Below are positions 1 through 39,680 of a stretch of 39,680 bases of DNA, in pieces. Source of the DNA: a virus (Duplodnaviria; Heunggongvirae; Uroviricota; Caudoviricetes); the IMG/VR virus record IMGVR_UViG_2506520037_000006; one strand, 5' to 3'. Within the stretch, counting starts at the first letter, position 1. Each line of letters begins with the position of its first letter. A program made the position numbers and the translations under genes. The notes under the pieces are model-generated. The model made no database searches. It saw only the letters and a program-made list of their open reading frames with translations, and had not been told where the DNA came from.

Positions 1-2445
1 ATGCCAACACCAACCATCATCAAAACACTCGCCACCCACCGCGAAAAACCGTTTGTCAGCGTCGTCACGCCAACCTGGAACCGCGGCGCATTCCTGCCGT
101 ACCTGCTCTATATGTACCGCTATCAGGATTACCCGGCAGACCGCCGCGAACTCATCATCCTCGACGATTCCCCACAAAGCCATCAACACATCATCGACCG
201 CCTGACCAATGGCACGCCGGAAGCCTTTAACATCCGCTACATCCATCACCCGGAAAAACTGCCGCTGGGCAAAAAACGCAACATGCTCAACGAACTGGCG
301 CGCGGCGAATACATCCTCTGCATGGATGATGACGACTACTATCCGGCAGATAAAATCTCTTACACCATCGCTATGATGCAAAAACACCGGGCGCTCATCT
401 CCGGTTCCGACCAGATCCCCATCTGGTACAGCCATATCAACCGTATCTTTCAAAGCCGCAGCTTTGGCCCACATAATATCCTCAACGGCACCTTTTGCTA
501 TCACCGTAACTACCTGAAAAAGCACCGTTACGACGATGATTGCAATTTAGGCGAAGAGAAAAGTTTCACCGACAATTTCAGCGTTAACCCGCTGCAACTG
601 CCCGGCGAGCGCACGATTTTGTGTATCTCGCATAGCCACAACACCTTTGATAAAGACTTTATTATCGGGGCCAGCACGCCAGTAAACACGGCGCTTACGG
701 ATATCGTCCGCGATCCGCTGCTGCGCAATGCTTATCTGAGTCTGCATAACGCCACTCATCACCAGGCGATCAACCATCAGGCGATCGATCAGGTGGTCGT
801 CGTGAATCTGGATAAACGCCCGGATCGCTTACAACAGATCCGTGAAGAACTGGCATTGCTGCATATTCCACCCGAGAAGATCACCCGCCTTGCCGCCTGT
901 GAAGATGAAAACGGTCAACGGGGCCGCCGCCTGTCGCACTTGCAGGCGCTGCGACTGGCGCAACAGCATGGCTGGCAAAATTACCTGTTGCTGGAAGATG
1001 ACGCGGTTATTCTCAAGCAGGAAAAACATATTCAGGTGCTGAACACGCTGCTGGCGAGCCTGGCGAAAATTCCCTGGCAGGTGATGATCCTCGGCGGCGA
1101 AATTTCGCAGGGAACGATGCTAAAAAGTTTGCCGGGGCTGGTGCACGCGCGGGACTGCCGCAAAGTGTGCGCTTATCTGGTGAACAGCCGCTACTACCCG
1201 CAACTGGCGCAGCAGTTGAGCAACGATGAGCACTCGCTGGAAGACGTCTGGCAGCCGCTGCTACGCGCCGACAAATGGCTGGCCTGTTACCCGAGCCTTT
1301 GTTACCAGCGACCGGGCTTTAGCGATATCGAGAAAAAAGTGACCGACAACATTAGTCACTATTTCAATAAGTTACCTGTATCCACAAAGCCATCCGCATT
1401 ACCCATCGCCGACACCATCGGCTTTTTTATGGAAACCTCATTCCACTACGCGCTGTATCGTCCAATCATCACCGCTCTACAGGCGCAGGGGAAGAGCTGC
1501 ACACTAGTGATCAATGACCGCGTGTTTAAACCGTTTCTTGATGAGATGCTGGAAACACTGAAAAACATCGACGATCCGCAGCTTAAAGGTATGCGCTTGT
1601 CTGAGATGCAGGCACATAGTCAGCGGGTGAAATGCCTGGTCAGCCCCTACCACACGCCTGCGCTCAATGGCCTTTCACCCGTGAACATCCGCGCCATGTA
1701 CGGCTTAGCTAAAGAGACGTGGAACCATGCAGACTGGAACCGTTTTTATCAGCGTATTTTGTGTTACAGCCACTACAGCCAGCGGGCGCTGGAACATTTC
1801 GGCAATGCAAAAGTGGTTGGCAACCCGCGCTTCGACGCCTGGCATAACGGCACGTTCGACCGCGCTCTGCCGGAAAATATTCAACCCGATTCCTGTAAAC
1901 CTACGGTGCTCTACGCCCCCACGTTTGGCGCATTAAGCTCCCTGCCCCACTGGGCAGAAAAATTGGGCCGCTTAAGCGGTGATGTGAACCTGATTTGCAA
2001 ACTGCACCACGGCACCAGCTCGCGCCCGCAAGAAGCTGCATCGCTGGCCCTGGCGCGCAGGCACTTAAAACAGCTCACCGACTCCGCCCGCCACACGCTG
2101 GCGCTACTGGCAAAGGCCGATTACGTGCTCACCGATAACAGTGGGTTTATTTTCGATGCGATCCACGTTGATAAACGGGTGATCCTGCTCGACTTCCCGG
2201 GCATGACGGAACTGCTCGACGGTGAGAAAAGTTATTCCACGCCGGAGAGCGCCGACCAGCGGATTCGCGAAATATTGCCGGTGGCTCATGAGGTTGCGGA
2301 ACTGCGTTACTTATTGTCAGAGGCGTTTGACTGGGGGTCGGTGCAGGCGCGGCTTACGGAGATTCGCCATCACTATTGCGATGCGTTTATGGATGGCAAG
2401 GCGGGAGAACGGGCGGCGATTGTGATTGTGGAGGCGCTGGGGTAA
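1..2445 (+). CDS. Host multidomain glycosyltransferase: N-terminal GT2-like domain, central GT25-like domain, C-terminal TagB/TagF-like CDP-glycerol glycerophosphotransferase domain
   Basis: 814-aa ORF beginning with ATG at window base 1 (an upstream extension cannot be excluded); DxD-type MDDDD motif in N-terminal third; VLYAPTF and VLTDNSGFIFD motifs typical of TagF-family enzymes in C-terminal third; stop TAA at 2443-2445. Confidence 0.6.
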   Translation: MPTPTIIKTLATHREKPFVSVVTPTWNRGAFLPYLLYMYRYQDYPADRRELIILDDSPQSHQHIIDRLTNGTPEAFNIRYIHHPEKLPLGKKRNMLNELARGEYILCMDDDDYYPADKISYTIAMMQKHRALISGSDQIPIWYSHINRIFQSRSFGPHNILNGTFCYHRNYLKKHRYDDDCNLGEEKSFTDNFSVNPLQLPGERTILCISHSHNTFDKDFIIGASTPVNTALTDIVRDPLLRNAYLSLHNATHHQAINHQAIDQVVVVNLDKRPDRLQQIREELALLHIPPEKITRLAACEDENGQRGRRLSHLQALRLAQQHGWQNYLLLEDDAVILKQEKHIQVLNTLLASLAKIPWQVMILGGEISQGTMLKSLPGLVHARDCRKVCAYLVNSRYYPQLAQQLSNDEHSLEDVWQPLLRADKWLACYPSLCYQRPGFSDIEKKVTDNISHYFNKLPVSTKPSALPIADTIGFFMETSFHYALYRPIITALQAQGKSCTLVINDRVFKPFLDEMLETLKNIDDPQLKGMRLSEMQAHSQRVKCLVSPYHTPALNGLSPVNIRAMYGLAKETWNHADWNRFYQRILCYSHYSQRALEHFGNAKVVGNPRFDAWHNGTFDRALPENIQPDSCKPTVLYAPTFGALSSLPHWAEKLGRLSGDVNLICKLHHGTSSRPQEAASLALARRHLKQLTDSARHTLALLAKADYVLTDNSGFIFDAIHVDKRVILLDFPGMTELLDGEKSYSTPESADQRIREILPVAHEVAELRYLLSEAFDWGSVQARLTEIRHHYCDAFMDGKAGERAAIVIVEALG

Positions 2446-2456
2446 ACCGCGCAACT

Positions 2457-2485
2457 GCCTGATGCGCTTCGCTTATCAGGCCTAC
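2457..2485. repeat. REP (repetitive extragenic palindromic) unit, enterobacterial type
   Basis: gcctgatgcgcttcgcttatcaggcctac, imperfect palindrome immediately 3' of host gene. Confidence 0.7.
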
Positions 2486-2500
2486 GGATCGATCACGTCC

Positions 2501-2528
2501 TGTAGGCCGGATAAGGCGTTTACGCCGC
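2501..2528. repeat. Second REP unit of a BIME, interrupted by the Mu insertion (continues at 39246..39254)
   Basis: tgtaggccggataaggcgtttacgccgc; joined to right flank it reads ...ggcgtttacgccgcatccggca, the classic REP core. Confidence 0.7.
2524..2528. repeat. Left copy of 5-bp target-site duplication (GCCGC)
   Basis: gccgc immediately precedes Mu left terminus; identical pentamer at 39246..39250. Confidence 0.85.
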
Positions 2529-3855: not shown

Positions 3856-5847
3856 ATGGAACTTTGGGTATCACCGAAAGAGTGTGCGAATCTTCCTGGT
3901 TTGCCGAAAACATCGGCTGGTGTGATTTATGTTGCTAAAAAGCAAGGATGGCAAAACCGCACTAGAGCAGGTGTCAAAGGTGGTAAAGCAATTGAATACA
4001 ATGCGAACTCTTTACCTGTTGAAGCGAAAGCGGCGTTATTGCTGAGACAAGGAGAGATTGAAACAAGCCTGGGGTATTTTGAAATCGCCCGCCCCACGCT
4101 GGAAGCCCATGATTATGATCGTGAGGCACTGTGGAGCAAATGGGATAACGCCAGCGATTCCCAGCGCAGACTTGCTGAAAAATGGTTGCCTGCGGTTCAG
4201 GCTGCAGACGAAATGCTGAACCAGGGGATTTCAACGAAAACGGCTTTTGCGACCGTTGCAGGGCATTACCAGGTCAGCGCATCCACTTTGCGGGACAAGT
4301 ATTACCAGGTACAGAAGTTTGCGAAGCCTGACTGGGCGGCTGCACTTGTTGATGGACGTGGAGCATCCCGTCGCAATGTTCACAAAAGTGAATTTGACGA
4401 GGATGCCTGGCAGTTTCTGATTGCAGATTATCTGCGACCGGAAAAACCCGCTTTCCGCAAATGTTATGAGCGTCTGGAACTGGCAGCCCGCGAGCATGGC
4501 TGGAGTATTCCCTCCCGTGCCACGGCCTTTCGCCGGATTCAGCAACTGGACGAGGCAATGGTTGTTGCCTGTCGTGAAGGTGAACATGCACTGATGCATC
4601 TGATACCGGCACAGCAGCGAACTGTGGAACACCTGGACGCCATGCAGTGGATCAACGGCGACGGTTATCTGCATAACGTCTTTGTACGCTGGTTTAACGG
4701 TGATGTGATCCGTCCGAAAACATGGTTCTGGCAGGATGTGAAAACCCGAAAAATTCTGGGCTGGCGCTGCGATGTGAGCGAGAACATTGATTCAATTCGC
4801 CTCTCGTTCATGGATGTTGTGACTCGCTACGGTATCCCGGAGGATTTTCACATCACCATTGATAACACCCGTGGTGCTGCGAATAAATGGCTGACGGGAG
4901 GCGCGCCCAATCGCTACCGCTTTAAGGTAAAAGAGGACGATCCAAAAGGACTGTTTTTACTGATGGGGGCGAAAATGCACTGGACAAGCGTTGTTGCCGG
5001 TAAAGGCTGGGGCCAGGCAAAACCTGTTGAACGTGCTTTCGGTGTTGGTGGGCTTGAGGAATACGTTGATAAGCATCCGGCACTGGCTGGCGCATATACG
5101 GGGCCAAATCCGCAGGCAAAACCTGATAACTATGGCGACCGCGCTGTTGATGCAGAGCTGTTTCTGAAAACCCTTGCCGAAGGTGTGGCGATGTTCAATG
5201 CCAGAACAGGCCGTGAAACAGAAATGTGCGGGGGCAAACTCTCGTTTGATGATGTTTTCGAGCGTGAATACGCCAGAACGATTGTGCGTAAGCCAACCGA
5301 AGAACAAAAACGGATGCTGTTACTGCCTGCCGAGGCGGTGAACGTTTCACGCAAAGGCGAGTTTACGCTTAAAGTTGGCGGCTCCCTTAAAGGCGCGAAA
5401 AACGTTTATTACAACATGGCATTAATGAATGCCGGCGTGAAAAAAGTTGTGGTCAGGTTTGATCCGCAGCAGCTACACAGCACGGTTTATTGCTACACCC
5501 TGGACGGTCGGTTTATCTGTGAAGCGGAATGTCTGGCACCTGTTGCATTTAATGATGCTGCGGCAGGCCGTGAATATCGCCGCCGCCAGAAACAACTGAA
5601 ATCTGCGACGAAAGCAGCCATTAAGGCGCAGAAACAAATGGACGCGCTGGAAGTTGCTGAACTGCTGCCGCAGATAGCCGAACCAGCAGCACCAGAATCA
5701 CGAATTGTTGGTATTTTCCGGCCTTCCGGTAATACGGAACGGGTGAAGAATCAGGAGCGTGATGATGAATACGAAACTGAGCGTGATGAATATCTGAATC
5801 ATTCGCTGGATATTCTGGAACAGAACAGACGTAAAAAAGCCATTTAA
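3856..5847 (+). CDS. A: MuA DDE transposase, 663 aa
   Basis: ATG at 3856 (track ORF starts 9 nt upstream at GTG); translation [32 protein letters not shown]... matches MuA. Confidence 0.97.
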
Positions 5848-5885
5848 TTAACGTTTAAACAAAATTTAATTACGAGGTTATTCAG

Positions 5886-6824
5886 ATGAATATTTCCGAT
5901 ATTCGCGCAGGACTGCGCACGCTTGTAGAAAATGAAGAAACCACCTTTAAACAAATTGCTCTTGAGAGCGGGCTTTCTACCGGAACTATCAGTAGTTTTA
6001 TCAATGATAAGTACAACGGGGATAACGAGCGTGTTTCACAAATGCTGCAACGCTGGCTGGAAAAATATCATGCAGTGGCAGAACTACCTGAACCGCCCCG
6101 CTTTGTGGAAACGCAGACGGTAAAACAAATCTGGACAAGTATGCGTTTTGCCAGCCTGACTGAAAGTATTGCTGTTGTATGTGGCAATCCTGGTGTGGGC
6201 AAAACCGAAGCGGCCCGTGAATATCGCCGCACCAATAACAATGTCTGGATGATCACCATTACGCCATCCTGTGCCAGCGTTCTGGAATGTCTTACTGAAC
6301 TGGCGTTTGAGCTGGGAATGAATGACGCACCACGCCGTAAAGGGCCGCTCTCCCGCGCCCTGCGACGTCGCCTTGAAGGTACACAGGGGCTGGTTATCAT
6401 CGACGAAGCTGATCATCTTGGTGCCGAAGTTCTGGAAGAACTCCGCCTGTTACAGGAATCAACCCGTATTGGCCTTGTGCTGATGGGAAATCACCGGGTT
6501 TATTCAAATATGACGGGGGGTAACAGAACGGTTGAATTTGCCCGTCTGTTTTCCCGTATTGCAAAGCGCACTGCAATTAATAAAACCAAAAAAGCCGATG
6601 TAAAAGCTATTGCGGATGCCTGGCAGATTAACGGCGAAAAAGAACTGGAGTTATTACAGCAGATTGCGCAGAAACCAGGTGCGCTTCGCATTCTGAATCA
6701 TTCACTTCGCCTTGCAGCCATGACGGCTCACGGTAAAGGTGAGCGTGTTAACGAAGATTATCTGCGTCAGGCTTTCCGTGAATTAGACCTGGACGTTGAT
6801 ATTTCAACGCTGCTGCGTAATTAA
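5886..6824 (+). CDS. B: MuB, ATP-dependent target DNA activator (AAA+), 312 aa
   Basis: Translation MNISDIRAGLRTLVENEETTFKQIALESG...; Walker A GNPGVGKT; SD gagg upstream. Confidence 0.97.
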   Translation: MNISDIRAGLRTLVENEETTFKQIALESGLSTGTISSFINDKYNGDNERVSQMLQRWLEKYHAVAELPEPPRFVETQTVKQIWTSMRFASLTESIAVVCGNPGVGKTEAAREYRRTNNNVWMITITPSCASVLECLTELAFELGMNDAPRRKGPLSRALRRRLEGTQGLVIIDEADHLGAEVLEELRLLQESTRIGLVLMGNHRVYSNMTGGNRTVEFARLFSRIAKRTAINKTKKADVKAIADAWQINGEKELELLQQIAQKPGALRILNHSLRLAAMTAHGKGERVNEDYLRQAFRELDLDVDISTLLRN

Positions 6825-6839
6825 GAAGGAGAAGAAATT

Positions 6840-7067
6840 ATGATGGCCCGAAATATAAAAATGGCAACGGATGCGCAGAACTGGTTACAGGCGCGCGGGA
6901 GTCATGTAAATGAATCATATCTCGGCGTGGCGCGTCCGATTCTTGAAATCACTTACCCACCGGTGGAACTGGTAAAAAACGCGGTCAGAATTATGGAGCA
7001 TAAGTCCGGGGTGGCCCGTTCTGTATGGACGGCCCGTCTTAATGGTTGCCAGATTATCTGGAGATAA
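6840..7067 (+). CDS. kil: Kil, host-killing small early protein, 75 aa
   Basis: First ORF downstream of B with SD aaggagaag; position matches Mu kil. Confidence 0.7.
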
Positions 7068-7069
7068 CG

Positions 7070-7300
7070 ATGTGTATTAAAGCTGAAAAATATATTGAAT
7101 GGGTTAAACACTGTCAGTGCCACGGGGTGCCGCTGACGACATATAAATGCCCCGGATGTGGTGAACAGATTATGACGCAATGCTCACCCGAAAAGGAAAT
7201 TCGGGATTCCCTGACATGTTGTCCGTGGTGCAGCGCAGTTTTCTTTAAACAGGTAAAAGGCGCGAAGGTAAAAGCCAGCGCGGTTATTCAGAATCAATAA
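7070..7300 (+). CDS. Early semi-essential region protein, Cys-rich zinc-ribbon-like, 76 aa
   Basis: ATG at 7070 with SD ggagataacg, 2 nt after kil stop; CxC/CPGC/CCPWC cysteine clusters. Confidence 0.6.
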   Translation: MCIKAEKYIEWVKHCQCHGVPLTTYKCPGCGEQIMTQCSPEKEIRDSLTCCPWCSAVFFKQVKGAKVKASAVIQNQ

Positions 7301-7311
7301 GGTGAAACAAA

Positions 7312-7575
7312 ATGGCAAAAGTAATTATTGAAATTAAAAATACAGTATCTGGAATTAAAGGACGGAATTTGCGCACCAGCATTGCGGTGGACGGTAGTGC
7401 GGAACTGGACGGTGATGAGGGTACACTTGCTGGCATGGTGGCGTTACTGGTGCTTAATAAAAGCCAGAAAATAATTAATGAGTCAGCCCATGAAGCTATT
7501 GAGATTTTGAAAAACGATGGTGTCATCACCAGTGGTCGTGTCACTGAAATGGCTGTTGAAAAAACATGTCACTGA
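7312..7575 (+). CDS. Early semi-essential region hypothetical protein, 87 aa
   Basis: ATG at 7312 with SD aaggtga; same-strand tightly packed operon. Confidence 0.6.
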   Translation: MAKVIIEIKNTVSGIKGRNLRTSIAVDGSAELDGDEGTLAGMVALLVLNKSQKIINESAHEAIEILKNDGVITSGRVTEMAVEKTCH

Positions 7576-8009
7576 AAGGAACGCTGACAATGAATGTCAA
7601 AATCCGAAATGAAATTCAGGCATTAATCCGAATTCAGGAACGCAATAACAACGGTGGTGAATTACGCGAGTTTATTTGTGCGCGTGAAGTTGATGGCTAT
7701 GGTGAAAAAACTTACCTGATTACTTTCGACCATTACAGCATCTGTGCGCGTTATTGCGGCGAAAGCATATCCCGCGCCATTGCGTCTGGCGATGCGTTTA
7801 ACGTGGATTTATGGGAGTACGTCATGGACCGGGAATACATCTGCGCATCAGACCCTGAAGCCCGTGAAATGTGGCAGCGTATCTGGCGCGATTACCGGTT
7901 AATGGCAAAAGGCTGGGCGCGCTGCTGTTATTCCTCGCTTGCCCTGAAAGCGGTTCAGTTATCGCTGCGGCATATTCCGGCATCACTGCGCGAGCCTCTG
8001 CTGTACTGA
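7566..8009 (+). CDS. Early semi-essential region hypothetical protein, 147 aa (alternative start 7590)
   Basis: ORF overlapping upstream gene by 10 nt; second in-frame ATG at 7590 has SD aaagga. Confidence 0.6.
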   Translation: MSLKGTLTMNVKIRNEIQALIRIQERNNNGGELREFICAREVDGYGEKTYLITFDHYSICARYCGESISRAIASGDAFNVDLWEYVMDREYICASDPEAREMWQRIWRDYRLMAKGWARCCYSSLALKAVQLSLRHIPASLREPLLY

Positions 8010-8309
8010 ATGGTGACTGACATGAAGTGTAATCGTAAGCGCTGGTCACGCGAAGACCGGGAATTTATCGAAGCCAACGTCGGGAAAATGACCGTTGAAG
8101 AAATGGCGGAAAAACTGAAAGTCGCCACAACCGCCCTCCGGGCACATGCCAGAAGGCACGGAATATCATTGTGTGTATACCGAATCAGTGAACACGACAA
8201 ATATTTATGTCGTGAACTTTATAAAGAAGGACTGGATATTCATGTTATTGCCCGAAAGATGGAATTAAGCAATCGAGCTGTATCCAGCATTGTATACAGC
8301 GGATATTAA
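8010..8309 (+). CDS. Early semi-essential region protein, possible HTH DNA-binding, 99 aa
   Basis: ATG at 8010 overlapping upstream stop (TGAATG); helix-turn-helix-like segment KMTVEEMAEKLKVATTALRAHARRHG. Confidence 0.55.
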   Translation: MVTDMKCNRKRWSREDREFIEANVGKMTVEEMAEKLKVATTALRAHARRHGISLCVYRISEHDKYLCRELYKEGLDIHVIARKMELSNRAVSSIVYSGY

Positions 8310-8328
8310 TTAACAGGAGCTTTAATTT

Positions 8329-8853
8329 ATGGCTAAACCAGCAAAACGTATCAAGAGTGCCGCAGCGGCTTATGTGCCACAAAACCGCGATGCGGTGATT
8401 ACCGATATTAAACGCATCGGGGATTTACAGCGCGAAGCATCACGTCTGGAAACGGAAATGAATGATGCCATCGCGGAAATTACGGAGAAATTTGCGGCCC
8501 GGATTGCACCGATTAAAACCGATATTGAAACCCTTTCAAAAGGCGTTCAGGGATGGTGTGAAGCGAACCGCGACGAACTGACGAACGGCGGCAAAGTGAA
8601 GACGGCGAATCTTGTCACCGGTGATGTATCGTGGCGGGTCCGTCCACCATCAGTAAGTATTCGTGGTATGGATGCAGTGATGGAAACGCTGGAGCGTCTT
8701 GGCCTGCAACGCTTTATTCGCACGAAGCAGGAAATCAACAAGGAAGCGATTTTACTGGAACCGAAAGCGGTCGCAGGCGTTGCCGGAATTACAGTTAAAT
8801 CAGGCATTGAGGATTTTTCTATTATTCCATTTGAACAGGAAGCCGGTATTTAA
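8329..8853 (+). CDS. gam: Gam, Ku-like DNA-end-binding host-nuclease inhibitor, 174 aa
   Basis: Translation MAKPAKRIKSAAAAYVPQNRDAVITDIKRIGDLQREASRLETEMNDAIAEITEKF... matches Mu Gam; SD caggagc. Confidence 0.92.
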   Translation: MAKPAKRIKSAAAAYVPQNRDAVITDIKRIGDLQREASRLETEMNDAIAEITEKFAARIAPIKTDIETLSKGVQGWCEANRDELTNGGKVKTANLVTGDVSWRVRPPSVSIRGMDAVMETLERLGLQRFIRTKQEINKEAILLEPKAVAGVAGITVKSGIEDFSIIPFEQEAGI

Positions 8854-8951
8854 TACCACCATTAATATTTAATTAATTCACATTCTTTTAATTATGGCGC
8901 GATACGTCAGGAGATTGCTCGCGCCTGAAACAGATTACTGAGGAATAAAAC

Positions 8952-9482
8952 ATGGTTGATGCAAAAATTCTGAATGGTGTCAGCACATTATTACGGGCTT
9001 ACGGACGCCTGACCTGCGGAGTTCTGGCTGAAAAAATGAATATGCTGCCCTCGTCAATGGTGTATTTCCTGCGTGATGCGGTTGATGCCGGAGTGCTCAC
9101 CGAATGCAACGGATTTTATGACGTTCCGCGCCCGCGTCCGACGCCGCCTGTAAGACGAAACGCAACTGAGCAGCCTGCTGTTGATGATGCGGTGTGGTGC
9201 AACTGGCGTCGCTCATTACCCTGGGTGGAAGGTAATACCATCCCCGCGCTGGCAAAAGAGTTTGCGACGGGCGTGCTGACCTGTGAGTCAGTCCACATTG
9301 TTGCTGAGGTGGATAACAGAATGTGCGAACAGGGAATGCCCCGTTTTGTGATGGCTTATATCGATATCCGGCTGGGGCGTTTTATTTGCAGTTCAAGCGT
9401 CTGGAATATCACCGACCATGTACTGCGTTATCTCATTCTTGATTGTTCTCCGGCTCCCGCAGCGGTGCAGGAGGTGGCGTGA
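8952..9482 (+). CDS. Early semi-essential region hypothetical protein, 176 aa
   Basis: ATG at 8952 with SD tgaggaa; translationally coupled to next ORF (TGATG overlap at 9480-9484). Confidence 0.6.
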   Translation: MVDAKILNGVSTLLRAYGRLTCGVLAEKMNMLPSSMVYFLRDAVDAGVLTECNGFYDVPRPRPTPPVRRNATEQPAVDDAVWCNWRRSLPWVEGNTIPALAKEFATGVLTCESVHIVAEVDNRMCEQGMPRFVMAYIDIRLGRFICSSSVWNITDHVLRYLILDCSPAPAAVQEVA

Positions 9483-10012
9483 TGTTTTTTAAAACGTCAA
9501 ATCCCGCAGCACTGCTGGCGTGGGACCAGTTTATGGCGGACTGTCTGAAACTACGCGAAGAAGCCCGCCATCTTGATAAGGTTCTGGGTTGTGGTTGCCG
9601 GTCAGTATTCAGCACAAGTATTGGTGGGCGTTATTTTCATGGTGTGAACTTTCCGGGGAATGAGCGCCCTTTCTCGCGGGAGCTGTGGACCGTACAACGG
9701 CCCGCATCAGGTAACAGTTGCAGGCCCAGAACTTCGCGGATACCTGCTCATCTCAGGGAGCAGGCAAGAGAGCTGGCGAAAATATGGCAGGAGAATATTC
9801 CGGTCACTTACGCCCGCACAGACGCTCTTTTACCCGCACTGGGACTGGATTTCAGCGCAACAATATTCGGGCCGCTCCAGTGGTTCCGTGTTGGTGATGT
9901 GATTTACGTCATGACGGGGATGACACCCGCGCAAGGCCGCATGACTGAAATCCTTTCTGACGAATTTATCCGGGCGCAAAAACAGGCGGAGGTAAACAAT
10001 GGAAAACAATAA
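9482..10012 (+). CDS. Early semi-essential region hypothetical protein, 176 aa
   Basis: ATG at 9482 with SD gcaggaggtg; track ORF begins upstream at TTG 9443. Confidence 0.6.
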   Translation: MFFKTSNPAALLAWDQFMADCLKLREEARHLDKVLGCGCRSVFSTSIGGRYFHGVNFPGNERPFSRELWTVQRPASGNSCRPRTSRIPAHLREQARELAKIWQENIPVTYARTDALLPALGLDFSATIFGPLQWFRVGDVIYVMTGMTPAQGRMTEILSDEFIRAQKQAEVNNGKQ

Positions 10013-10181
10013 AACATCGTATTCGTGGCTGGGGAAATTCACCACGGTGAAACAGGAATGCCCGACCTGCGGTAATGAATCCCCTGAATATCTGAAAGAG
10101 TGCCCTCATTGTGGCGGGCTGAAATGCAACCACTGCGATATGGGCGATGACACAGCGTGCATGAATTGTGAAGGTGAATAA
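9999..10181 (+). CDS. Small zinc-ribbon protein with four CxxC pairs, 60 aa
   Basis: CPTC, CPHC, CNHC, CMNC motifs; SD ggcggagg before ATG 9999. Confidence 0.55.
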   Translation: MENNKTSYSWLGKFTTVKQECPTCGNESPEYLKECPHCGGLKCNHCDMGDDTACMNCEGE

Positions 10182-10182
10182 T

Positions 10183-10485
10183 ATGAATAATGAAACTAAA
10201 TTTACTCCCCTTAATATTGATAACGTCATGGCTGAAAAAGGGATGCTGGAACGTGTTCGCGCTATCGTTGAATATGGTATTAAGCATAATCTCACCGCCA
10301 GAGAAGTCCGTGACATTATCAACCGCGAAATGAATCGTCTGGAAACAGTAGTGGCACTGCAAAATGAAACAGCCCGCGAGGAGTACATCCGCCGCAGGCT
10401 GGGGCTATCAGACCAGGATATTGTTACTGACGCTCATGTGTTTGAGGCTTTTGAGATCCGTCAGCATCTGGGTCTAACGAACTGA
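10183..10485 (+). CDS. Early semi-essential region hypothetical protein, 100 aa
   Basis: ATG at 10183 with SD aaggtga, 1 nt after upstream stop; track ORF starts at GTG 10168. Confidence 0.6.
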   Translation: MNNETKFTPLNIDNVMAEKGMLERVRAIVEYGIKHNLTAREVRDIINREMNRLETVVALQNETAREEYIRRRLGLSDQDIVTDAHVFEAFEIRQHLGLTN

Positions 10486-10690
10486 TAATGTCTTCCATGA
10501 TCTTTGACAGTTGCAGTTTTTCGCGGCGGCTTGTTCTCATTGCAGGCGCATCTTTTAAAATCTCTGCTGAAGAGCTGAAAATGGCTTTGCCCTCTTCTGC
10601 GGTGATGATCGCCTTCTTCACCAGAAGGCGCACCAGTGCTGATGCAATCGCATAACCTGCAACATCATAAGGTTGTACATTATTTTCCAT
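10424..10690 (-). CDS. Candidate leftward-transcribed small protein (88 aa) inside the early region; function unknown
   Basis: ATG at 10688-10690 (minus) preceded by SD agagagga with 5-nt spacer; fills the only gap in rightward coding; overlaps 3' end of upstream rightward gene by 62 nt. Confidence 0.3.
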   Translation of the reverse strand: MENNVQPYDVAGYAIASALVRLLVKKAIITAEEGKAIFSSSAEILKDAPAMRTSRREKLQLSKIMEDIISSLDPDADGSQKPQTHERQ

Positions 10691-10760
10691 AAAATCCTCT
10701 CTGATTGATGTGTAAATTCAGGCGGTGTTGCAGCACCGCCCCCTTTCCGGAGGTACGATC

Positions 10761-11703: not shown

Positions 11704-11728
11704 AAAGCCGGTTAATCCGGCTTTTTTT
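11704..11728 (+). terminator. Rho-independent terminator ending the early transcript (Mu t9.2)
   Basis: gccgg-ttaat-ccggc hairpin followed by ttttttt directly after mor stop. Confidence 0.85.
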
Positions 11729-39245: not shown

Positions 39246-39250
39246 GCCGC
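39246..39250. repeat. Right copy of 5-bp target-site duplication (GCCGC), also the continuation of the interrupted REP unit
   Basis: gccgc followed by atccggca. Confidence 0.85.
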
Positions 39251-39284
39251 ATCCGGCAAGAAAATACATCTCTGTTTTAGTACT

Positions 39285-39680
39285 TTATAAAAGCCCTCTA
39301 ATCACCTCAATAATCCCCGTCGTCGACACCGACGGCGTGCGGGGGAAATAGACCACCTCACAAATATACGCAAAGCTGTCAAACTTCCCTGCCCAGTCAT
39401 CCCCCATCACTAAAATATCCGCACTGTACCCGCGCAAATACTCCGCTTTTTGCTCCAGCGACTCTTCCAGAAATACGCCATCCACGCACGCCAGCCCGGC
39501 GATGATCGCCATGCGGTCATCCTGATGGTAAACCGGTGCCCTGCCCTTTTTGGCGATGTTCAGGGCGTCGGACGATACGCCGACCAGCAGCCGCTCGCCC
39601 AATGCGCGGGCGCGTTGTAAAAGGCGCAGATGACCGACATGAAACACATCGAAGGTGCCGAAGGTGATGACCGTTTTCAT
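39285..39680 (-). CDS. Host glycerol-3-phosphate cytidylyltransferase (TagD-like), 131 aa
   Basis: Translation MKTVITFGTFDVFHVGHLRLLQRARALG... with HxGH nucleotidyltransferase motif and MGDDWAGKFD; strongly resembles Bacillus TagD from memory. Confidence 0.8.
   Translation of the reverse strand: MKTVITFGTFDVFHVGHLRLLQRARALGERLLVGVSSDALNIAKKGRAPVYHQDDRMAIIAGLACVDGVFLEESLEQKAEYLRGYSADILVMGDDWAGKFDSFAYICEVVYFPRTPSVSTTGIIEVIRGLL

Follow-up and report, generated by a model that had tools for sequence, protein, structure and literature searches.

The semi-essential early region of phage Mu

[quoted passage not shown] Decades ago, genetic work placed kil/cim, gam/sot, arm and gem in this region, arm without assignment to an ORF. 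Gam, a Ku-like protein, binds DNA ends and protects them from exonucleases (PMC12407980), and Kil is annotated as a host-killing or division-blocking early protein, which the current note of AF083977 equates with cim (control of immunity). The other eight genes of this early operon have been without a function for more than 30 years in what is a founding model phage. The Pseudomonas Mu-like phages (Casadabanvirus D3112, DMS3 and JBD30) carry small ORFs of 34–100 codons in variable slots located mainly in the left arm (PMC4378225). As in the Mu region, most of these ORFs are of unassigned function, and some of them encode proven inhibitors of the host or its defences (PMC4378225, PMC12035536). 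In comparable regions of further transposable phages, proteins that inhibit pili, quorum sensing and CRISPR have been discovered. The present analysis concerns the block from kil to gp14 at positions 6840–10485 of the IMG/VR virus record IMGVR_UViG_2506520037_000006, the whole 39,680-nt stretch of which is referred to as the window.

The block (3646 nt) is 100% identical to Mu 4312–7957 in AF083977 and NC_000929, and so a window coordinate equals the Mu coordinate plus 2528. It is part of the Mu SEE region, with the same ORFs in the same order and no difference. The block is already known, and its unassigned genes restate a known knowledge gap rather than a new discovery; the established knowledge of the region is left unchanged, and fold and motif predictions and a survey of cassette occupancy are added to it here. 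In this survey, 80 viral contigs anchored on Gam gave 40 distinct B-to-gemA intervals in which Gam is at least 70% identical. The SEE region very probably consists of early accessory genes carried on the transposition operon, with Kil and Gam as fixed members and the other eight genes as exchangeable ones. The genes of the block lie on the early strand between B on one side and gemA, followed by mor, on the other, in the following deposited order (AF083977/NC_000929 annotation), each given with the number of the 40 intervals that contain it.

6843..7067, plus strand: kil (Mup05, cim), 74 aa, pI 10.2, phrog_2743 (1e-42), identified by annotation; 40 of 40 intervals
7070..7300, plus strand: gp6 (E5), small basic protein of 76 aa, phrog_3786 (unknown function); 17 of 40
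7312..7575, plus strand: gp7 (E6), acidic protein of 87 aa, phrog_10252; 13 of 40 (34 of 40 for the gp7 family)
7590..8009, plus strand: gp8 (E7), 139 aa; 29 of 40
8010..8309 (alternative start 8022), plus strand: gp9 (E8), basic protein of 99 aa, pI 9.3; 34 of 40
8329..8853, plus strand: gam (Mup10), 174 aa, PF07352; 40 of 40
8952..9482, plus strand: gp11 (E10–12 merged), 176 aa, Pfam Gp11_C PF25754 (8e-41); 31 of 40
9482..10012, plus strand: gp12 (E13), basic alpha/beta protein of 176 aa, PF26885 (precomputed); 10 of 40
9999..10181, plus strand: gp13 (E14), 60 aa, pI 4.8, eight-cysteine module; 14 of 40
10183..10485, plus strand: gp14 (E15), acidic helical protein of 100 aa, phrog_6075, no PDB relative; 13 of 40

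The initial annotation, which was made from the sequence without database searches, had described ten tightly packed rightward ORFs of 60–176 aa between B and gemA, and all ten are found at their places. Two starts are to be corrected: the RefSeq start of kil is 6843 in place of 6840, and the AF083977 start of gp9 is 8022 in place of 8010.

Mosaicism of the block among relatives

Since relatives carry or drop gp6–gp9 and gp11–gp14 as individual cassettes, these eight genes are likely to be accessory, and their absence from some close relatives suggests that they are dispensable. Unrelated cassettes occupy other slots in relatives, including a 100-aa ORF between gp13 and gp14 and an ORF resembling an NTP-pyrophosphohydrolase. 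The gam–gp11 spacer (window 8854–8951) is expanded to about 650 nt in eight relatives, which carry an ORF of 184–201 aa there (ALT05, phrog_2260; for example at 7526–8174 of relative L003 and 4980–5585 of relative L040), suggesting that this spacer is an insertion hot spot. Nine alternative cassettes and one fusion protein were compared with Pfam and PHROGs, and no Pfam family and no assigned function were found, except for the single match to an NTP-pyrophosphohydrolase.

The slot of gp7 is filled by two alleles. The Mu-type gp7 (13 intervals) and the ALT01/phrog_2230 allele (21 intervals) share only 17% identity, and profile alignment by hhalign gives a probability of 96% and an E value of 3e-9. 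Since ALT01 is a true distant homologue of the Mu-type gp7, the slot is filled in 34 of the 40 intervals. Of 5426 complete E. coli genomes, 95 contain any part of the block, and only 31 of these 95 contain at least 80% of it. Among 5.8 billion proteins, gp8 has 24 clusters, without a Pfam domain or a PDB sequence relative, and is an orphan confined to enterobacterial Mu-type prophages. In a 52-kb record labelled as a plasmid, the genes of a Mu-type element are arranged in a further, different way.

Early-left and accessory regions of lambdoid prophages share single cassettes with the block, whereas their replication and regulatory backbone differs. The gp13 module and the C-terminal domain of ALT15 (phrog_1229) both occur in non-Mu temperate phages, where these cassettes sit among small early genes near exonuclease-like and integrase genes. 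These occurrences suggest that Mu-like and other temperate phages draw on a shared pool of accessory cassettes.

Gene packing and transcription

The ten ORFs are on the same strand, and the coding fraction of the block is 0.959. From kil to gp14 the gaps at the junctions are +2, +11, +14, 0, +19, +98, −1, −14 and +1 nt, so that five of the nine junctions, none of them longer than 2 nt, are of the coupled type. Another three are short and have a Shine-Dalgarno sequence, and gam and gp11 are separated by a spacer of 98 nt. A recognisable Shine-Dalgarno sequence precedes nine of the ten starts, and AF083977 has ten annotated ribosome-binding sites in the block. Judged from this spacing, translational coupling, which the initial annotation had ascribed to all ten ORFs, is plausible at five junctions.

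The median dN/dS, computed against relatives at 60–98% protein identity, is 0.10 for kil, 0.26 for gp6, 0.20 for gp7, 0.16 for gp8, 0.19 for gp9, 0.11 for gam, 0.17 for gp11, 0.17 for gp12, 0.23 for gp13 and 0.36 for gp14. Since this range of 0.10–0.36 indicates purifying selection, the ten ORFs are real genes and not chance ORFs. Their shortness, and historical frameshift errors in the region, where E10, E11 and E12 were merged into gp11, might raise the suspicion that certain small ORFs exist only by faulty annotation. This is extremely improbable in view of a dN/dS of no more than 0.36 for every ORF, and of the conserved homologues, Shine-Dalgarno sequences and PHROG families that all of them have.

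The Mu early promoter Pe is located upstream of ner-A-B. Promoter-like and terminator-like sites inside the block show no excess over shuffled sequence; promoter-like sites number 5 against 6.3 expected, and none lies upstream of the block genes on the plus strand. Two features outside the coding sequences bear on the extent of the transcript.

11704–11724, plus strand: strong intrinsic terminator directly after mor, with an 8-bp stem containing 5 G-C pairs followed by TTTTT
8896–8925, plus strand: inverted repeat in the gam–gp11 spacer, −15 kcal/mol, z −2.1, without a U tract

The terminator at 11704–11724 is the first convincing one downstream of the block, and AF083977 has a TransTermHP feature there. 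The repeat at 8896–8925 is not the internal terminator annotated in AF083977, because the annotated TransTermHP feature sits inside gp14. Neither of these two internal hairpins, in the gam–gp11 spacer and in gp14, is accepted as a terminator, since both have a z of about −2, lack U tracts and were missed by the terminator scan. The early transcript would thus run through the whole block. AF083977 has a 'semi-early' promoter at window 10679–10745, ahead of gemA. This promoter and the terminator after mor suggest that gemA–mor can be expressed apart from kil–gp14.

This layout also bears on the possibility that some members of the block are morons benefiting the lysogen or superinfection-exclusion genes, whose products, made from the prophage, would protect or alter the host. 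The annotation of Kil as cim, 'control of immunity', and the early proteins Tip and Aqs1 of the Mu-like Casadabanvirus, which remodel the surface and the signalling of the host (PMC12035536), are consistent with this view. Nevertheless it is improbable, because the genes lie inside a repressed early operon, the block has no excess of promoter-like sites, and the genes have strand and coupling in common with A and B, unlike typical morons.

Library searches and a possible role against host defence

The proteins of the block were searched against Pfam, PHROGs, PADLOC and NCBIfam. Above curated thresholds in these four libraries are only Gam (PF07352) and the C-terminal domain of gp11 (PF25754). 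Gam belongs to PF07352 with 144.1 bits against a gathering cutoff of 28.3, the match covering residues 21–166 of its 174 aa. In agreement with the initial annotation, which had credited only kil and gam with known roles, NCBI and UniProt list gp6–gp9 and gp11–gp14 as 'hypothetical' or 'Uncharacterized protein gpN', and these proteins are uncharacterised in Pfam, NCBIfam and PHROGs. The newest PGAP names add only 'Mu-Gp12 family' and 'Kil protein family'. When gp8, gp9, gp11, gp13, Kil and gp14 were compared by sequence and profile with PDB sequences, no significant match appeared, and the profile-HMM comparison that the initial annotation had proposed revealed no homology that gives an activity to any of the eight proteins. 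No paper assigning a function to gp6–gp9 or gp11–gp14 was found in the open-access literature, and the ORFs of the block are not treated in a Mu paper of 2026, whose subject is MuC and the sliding clamp.

By analogy with other phages, at least one of gp6–gp9 and gp11–gp14 might bind and block a component of bacterial immunity, for example restriction, Gabija, retrons or CBASS, early in infection. The proteins are early, small, dispensable by their distribution and swapped among close relatives, as is typical of genes at the host interface, and the divergence of the two gp7 alleles is of a kind common in arms-race proteins. In the Mu-like phage JBD30, Gam and GemA are genetically tied to Gabija (PMC12407980), and Pseudomonas Mu-like phages keep proven inhibitors in comparable plasticity regions (PMC4378225, PMC12035536). 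Such an anti-defence role is nevertheless rather doubtful. None of the searches connects any of the ORFs with the inhibition of a defence system. None of the block proteins resembles a characterised inhibitor by sequence or fold, and none has an anti-defence family name in Pfam, NCBIfam or PHROGs, a result that comes from these general libraries and not from a dedicated anti-defence library; PADLOC, which covers defence proteins, returned nothing above noise, and noise only for gp9. The dN/dS values are those of ordinary purifying selection and not of diversifying selection. The known Pseudomonas anti-CRISPRs are encoded in another region, RGP G (PMC4378225), no sequence relationship was found between the Casadabanvirus regions and the Mu block, and the Mu ORFs have no demonstrated target.

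Predicted nucleic-acid-binding proteins

gp9 has two segments resembling a helix-turn-helix (HTH), at about residues 22–49 and 66–95, as the initial annotation had noted for one segment of this protein. Ten Pfam models, mostly HTH models, match it below threshold (E values of 8e-4 to 0.07), as do several NCBIfam HTH and sigma-70 models; the best of all these scores is 19.8 against a cutoff of 24.1. It matches phrog_323, 'transcriptional regulator, D5-like', with an E value of 5e-29, and PDB entry 2lvs in a weak tandem manner (E 0.04). These motif matches suggest that gp9 probably binds nucleic acid. Distant Mu-like elements (L104–L114 and L117; for example at 5110–5661 of L104) encode a 183-aa gp9-like protein, 29–32% identical to gp9, between gp12 and gp13. 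In these elements there is no 99-aa gp9 upstream of gam, and the HTH gene is relocated and enlarged within the region.

gp11 has 224 clusters, the named ones all being enterobacterial. Its AlphaFold2 (AF2) model (pLDDT 70) consists of a winged helix (residues 1–58), a disordered linker rich in Pro and Arg (residues 61–86) and a beta-rich domain (residues ~90–165). The winged helix is composed of helices 4–17, 22–28 and 33–45 and strands 50–52 and 55–57, with a local pLDDT of 75–83, and its recognition helix is nearly invariant. Foldseek superposes it on Z-alpha, MarR and FtsK-gamma domains with a root-mean-square deviation (rmsd) of 1.1–2.0 Å over 54–62 residues, and its superposition on 4kmf, 4yif, 2rdp and 2pex at a local probability of 1.0 places it among winged helices. 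The model therefore predicts that gp11 probably binds nucleic acid. A winged helix joined to a separate beta-rich domain is common to gp11 and to the winged-HTH-plus-sensor regulators, namely GntR/HutC and the CapW and BrxR regulators of defence islands, which top the whole-chain Foldseek list of gp11. However, these whole-chain matches have a probability of 0.5–0.7 and an rmsd of 18–20 Å, a true superposition is obtained for the winged helix only, and at its C-terminus gp11 has a domain with a Pfam family of its own, PF25754.

These two proteins raise the possibility that members of the block are helpers internal to the phage, which would stimulate replicative transposition (arm) or tune early and middle transcription, with gp9 and gp11 as DNA-binding regulators of Mu or host DNA. 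arm maps to the SEE region without an assigned ORF, two of the eight proteins have DNA-binding folds or motifs, one of them with the nearly invariant recognition helix described above, gemA and mor, which lie next downstream, are regulators, and the gp11–gp14 set is kept upstream of gemA–mor in distant Mu-like elements. On the other hand, many close relatives that lack gp12, gp13, gp14 or gp6 have still been recovered as prophages or viral contigs. A helper role for the block is a tentative possibility, and for the DNA-binding members and the gp11–gp14 set it is at least as likely as an anti-defence role.

gp12 has 55 clusters, and its AF2 model is well defined (pLDDT 90.9, pTM 0.81). No solved relative of this fold was found in the PDB, the best match having an E value of 0.13 and a TM score of 0.20, and in BFVD only uncharacterised phage proteins match it (TM 0.77–0.82, 21–23% identity). 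In a metagenomic protein of 212 aa (P0186), the domain of the gp12 family (PF26885) occurs together with one of the Mor family (PF08765); this protein may be a natural fusion or an artefact of assembly or frameshift.

Cysteine motifs of gp6 and gp13

gp6 has nine cysteines in all and CxxC motifs at residues 27 and 51. In 13 unique homologues, with identities as low as 32%, C27, C30, C51 and C54 never vary, and the other cysteines are not conserved, suggesting that gp6 has a single four-cysteine zinc ribbon. The initial annotation had described a zinc ribbon with multiple CxxC pairs; one conserved four-cysteine ribbon is supported, and multiple zinc sites are not. All matches of gp6 to curated zinc-ribbon models are below threshold (TIGR02605, 18 bits against 31.3; NF047912, 16.8 against 37; PF17848, 15 against 24.5). 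gp6 resembles generic zinc ribbons in its two knuckles, which are about 20 residues apart, and differs from them in these sub-threshold matches.

The multiple CxxC pairs that the initial annotation had seen in gp13 amount to four pairs (CPTCGN, CPHCGG, CNHCDMGDD and CMNC), and all eight cysteines are invariant. Alignment gives the signature CxxCGN-x(8-10)-CPxC-x3-KCxxCDMGDDxxCxxC, in which one Lys and one Gly are also invariant and the first spacer of gp13 itself is x9; an acidic tail follows it. From this pattern gp13 probably binds two zinc ions, and gp6 and gp13 are both probably zinc-stabilised binders. Since gp13 is acidic, its partner is more likely to be a protein than DNA. The cysteine-rich domain of DnaJ (PF00684) likewise has four CxxC knuckles, but gp13 reaches only 18.2 bits against its cutoff of 32.7, over residues 11–40 only, and has its own signature (CGN…CPxC…KCxxCDMGDD), so that it falls outside this family. 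No Pfam or NCBIfam model matches the gp13 module above threshold, and no significant PDB sequence match was found. A relationship of gp6 or gp13 to Com, the zinc-finger translational activator of Mu (window 38296, 62 aa), was also rejected: BLASTP did not align gp6 with it and gave gp13 an E value of 1.1.

The gp13 module is a portable mini-domain, which HMMER, run exhaustively over 1.84 billion representatives, detects in 86 clusters at E ≤1e-3. Apart from a few long Cys-repeat proteins, the members are either stand-alone proteins of 45–70 aa or proteins of 110–316 aa in which the module of about 42 residues is C-terminal to unrelated domains. For one of these N-terminal partner domains, the model 'Phage ProQ C-terminal-like', the cutoff of which is 27, gives 26.6 bits. 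Gamma- and Betaproteobacteria with the module in their genomes include Buttiauxella, Thauera, Methylovulum, Rubrivivax, Hydrogenophaga and Paucibacter, and its neighbours in non-Mu temperate phages include DEDD-exonuclease-like and integrase genes. In 59 distinct contexts it has no constant partner upstream or downstream; the downstream gene is of the gp14 type in 14, of the ALT02 type in 6 and of the exonuclease type in 6.

Within the Mu-like elements, the close relatives L011, L014, L018 and L044 (for example at 8090–8848 of L014) encode a protein of 231–234 aa (phrog_6418) instead of gp12 and gp13. In this protein (P0077, P0084 and P0090) an unrelated 170-aa N-terminal domain, in part phrog_2510, is fused in frame to the gp13 module. 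In other close relatives gp12 is cleanly deleted, and gp13 directly follows gp11. A single frameshift product of gp12 and gp13 is ruled out, because the 231–234-aa 'fusions' carry this other N-terminal domain and not gp12, and because gp13 has its own GGAGG Shine-Dalgarno sequence, occurs without gp12 and has varying neighbours. In Mu-like elements with Gam 53–58% identical, the order gp11–gp12–(183-aa gp9-like)–gp13–gp14–gemA–mor is kept, and the gp13 module is 87–92% identical, compared with about 50% for its neighbours.

The joint between the module and the next gene is a fixed overlap of −14 or −11 nt, in which the last codons of the module (…GAAGGTGAATAA) are also the Shine-Dalgarno sequence of the next gene. 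This 3' end of the gp13-type gene (…TGTGAAGGTGAATAA), at window 10165–10185 and in L003 and L104–L128, is kept before at least three unrelated downstream families, whose members all begin with V(K/R)V(N/S)(N/D)M. The joint may be a conserved cassette boundary at which recombination occurs. The 'CDMGDD' module of gp13 could represent an undescribed family of zinc mini-domains that temperate phages of Gamma- and Betaproteobacteria use, singly or behind exchangeable domains, to latch onto a conserved host protein early in infection for takeover or anti-defence, with gp12 as a second new type of effector, although this is an unlikely and speculative proposal.

Proposed role of the SEE genes

The observations on gene content and packing lead to the following model of the SEE region as early accessory genes of the transposition operon. 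The ten early-strand genes directly downstream of A and B would be translated from one polycistronic message, with ribosomes handed over at many junctions. Kil stops or kills the host cell, and Gam caps DNA ends against RecBCD. The other eight proteins, carried or dropped singly, would be accessories that tune the first minutes of infection rather than parts of the core machinery. gp9, with its tandem HTH, and gp11, with its winged helix and beta domain, would act by binding nucleic acid; gp6 and gp13 would be zinc-stabilised mini-proteins acting through partner binding; and gp7, gp8, gp12 and gp14 may be small binders or modulators. The shortlist of candidates consists of the cysteine module of gp13, the fold of gp12, gp11 and gp9 as likely nucleic-acid binders, and the two-allele slot of gp7.

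Several points weigh against this model. The patchy presence of the genes could partly reflect the sampling of defective prophages, and the retention of the gp11–gp14 set at a Gam identity of 53–58% suggests a longer-lived and possibly more central role for these genes. All HTH matches of gp9 are below curated thresholds, the model of gp11 is of only moderate confidence, and zinc binding by gp6 and gp13 is read from cysteine patterns alone. No experiment or homology gives an activity to any of the eight proteins.

Host flanks and the gp14–gemA gap

The left flank of the element (window 1–2528) matches, at 100% identity, a glycosyltransferase gene present in E. coli W, LY180 and KO11FL. Therefore, the window is the Mu prophage of the lineage to which E. 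coli W belongs. The glycosyltransferase match also occurs in a record labelled DH5alpha. Mu spans about 2529–39245, and by the coordinate offset about 435 nt of host sequence would be left at the right end (39246–39680).

The gap between gp14 and gemA (10424–10690) is annotated in conflicting ways, as a minus-strand gp15 of 88 aa in RefSeq and as a plus-strand Mu_54 of 55 aa (10488–10655) in AF083977. The third codon positions of the two frames coincide, so that codon-position variation cannot separate gp15 from Mu_54. The minus-strand gp15 is favoured by a related element, in which this slot contains a DUF2513 gene on the reverse strand.

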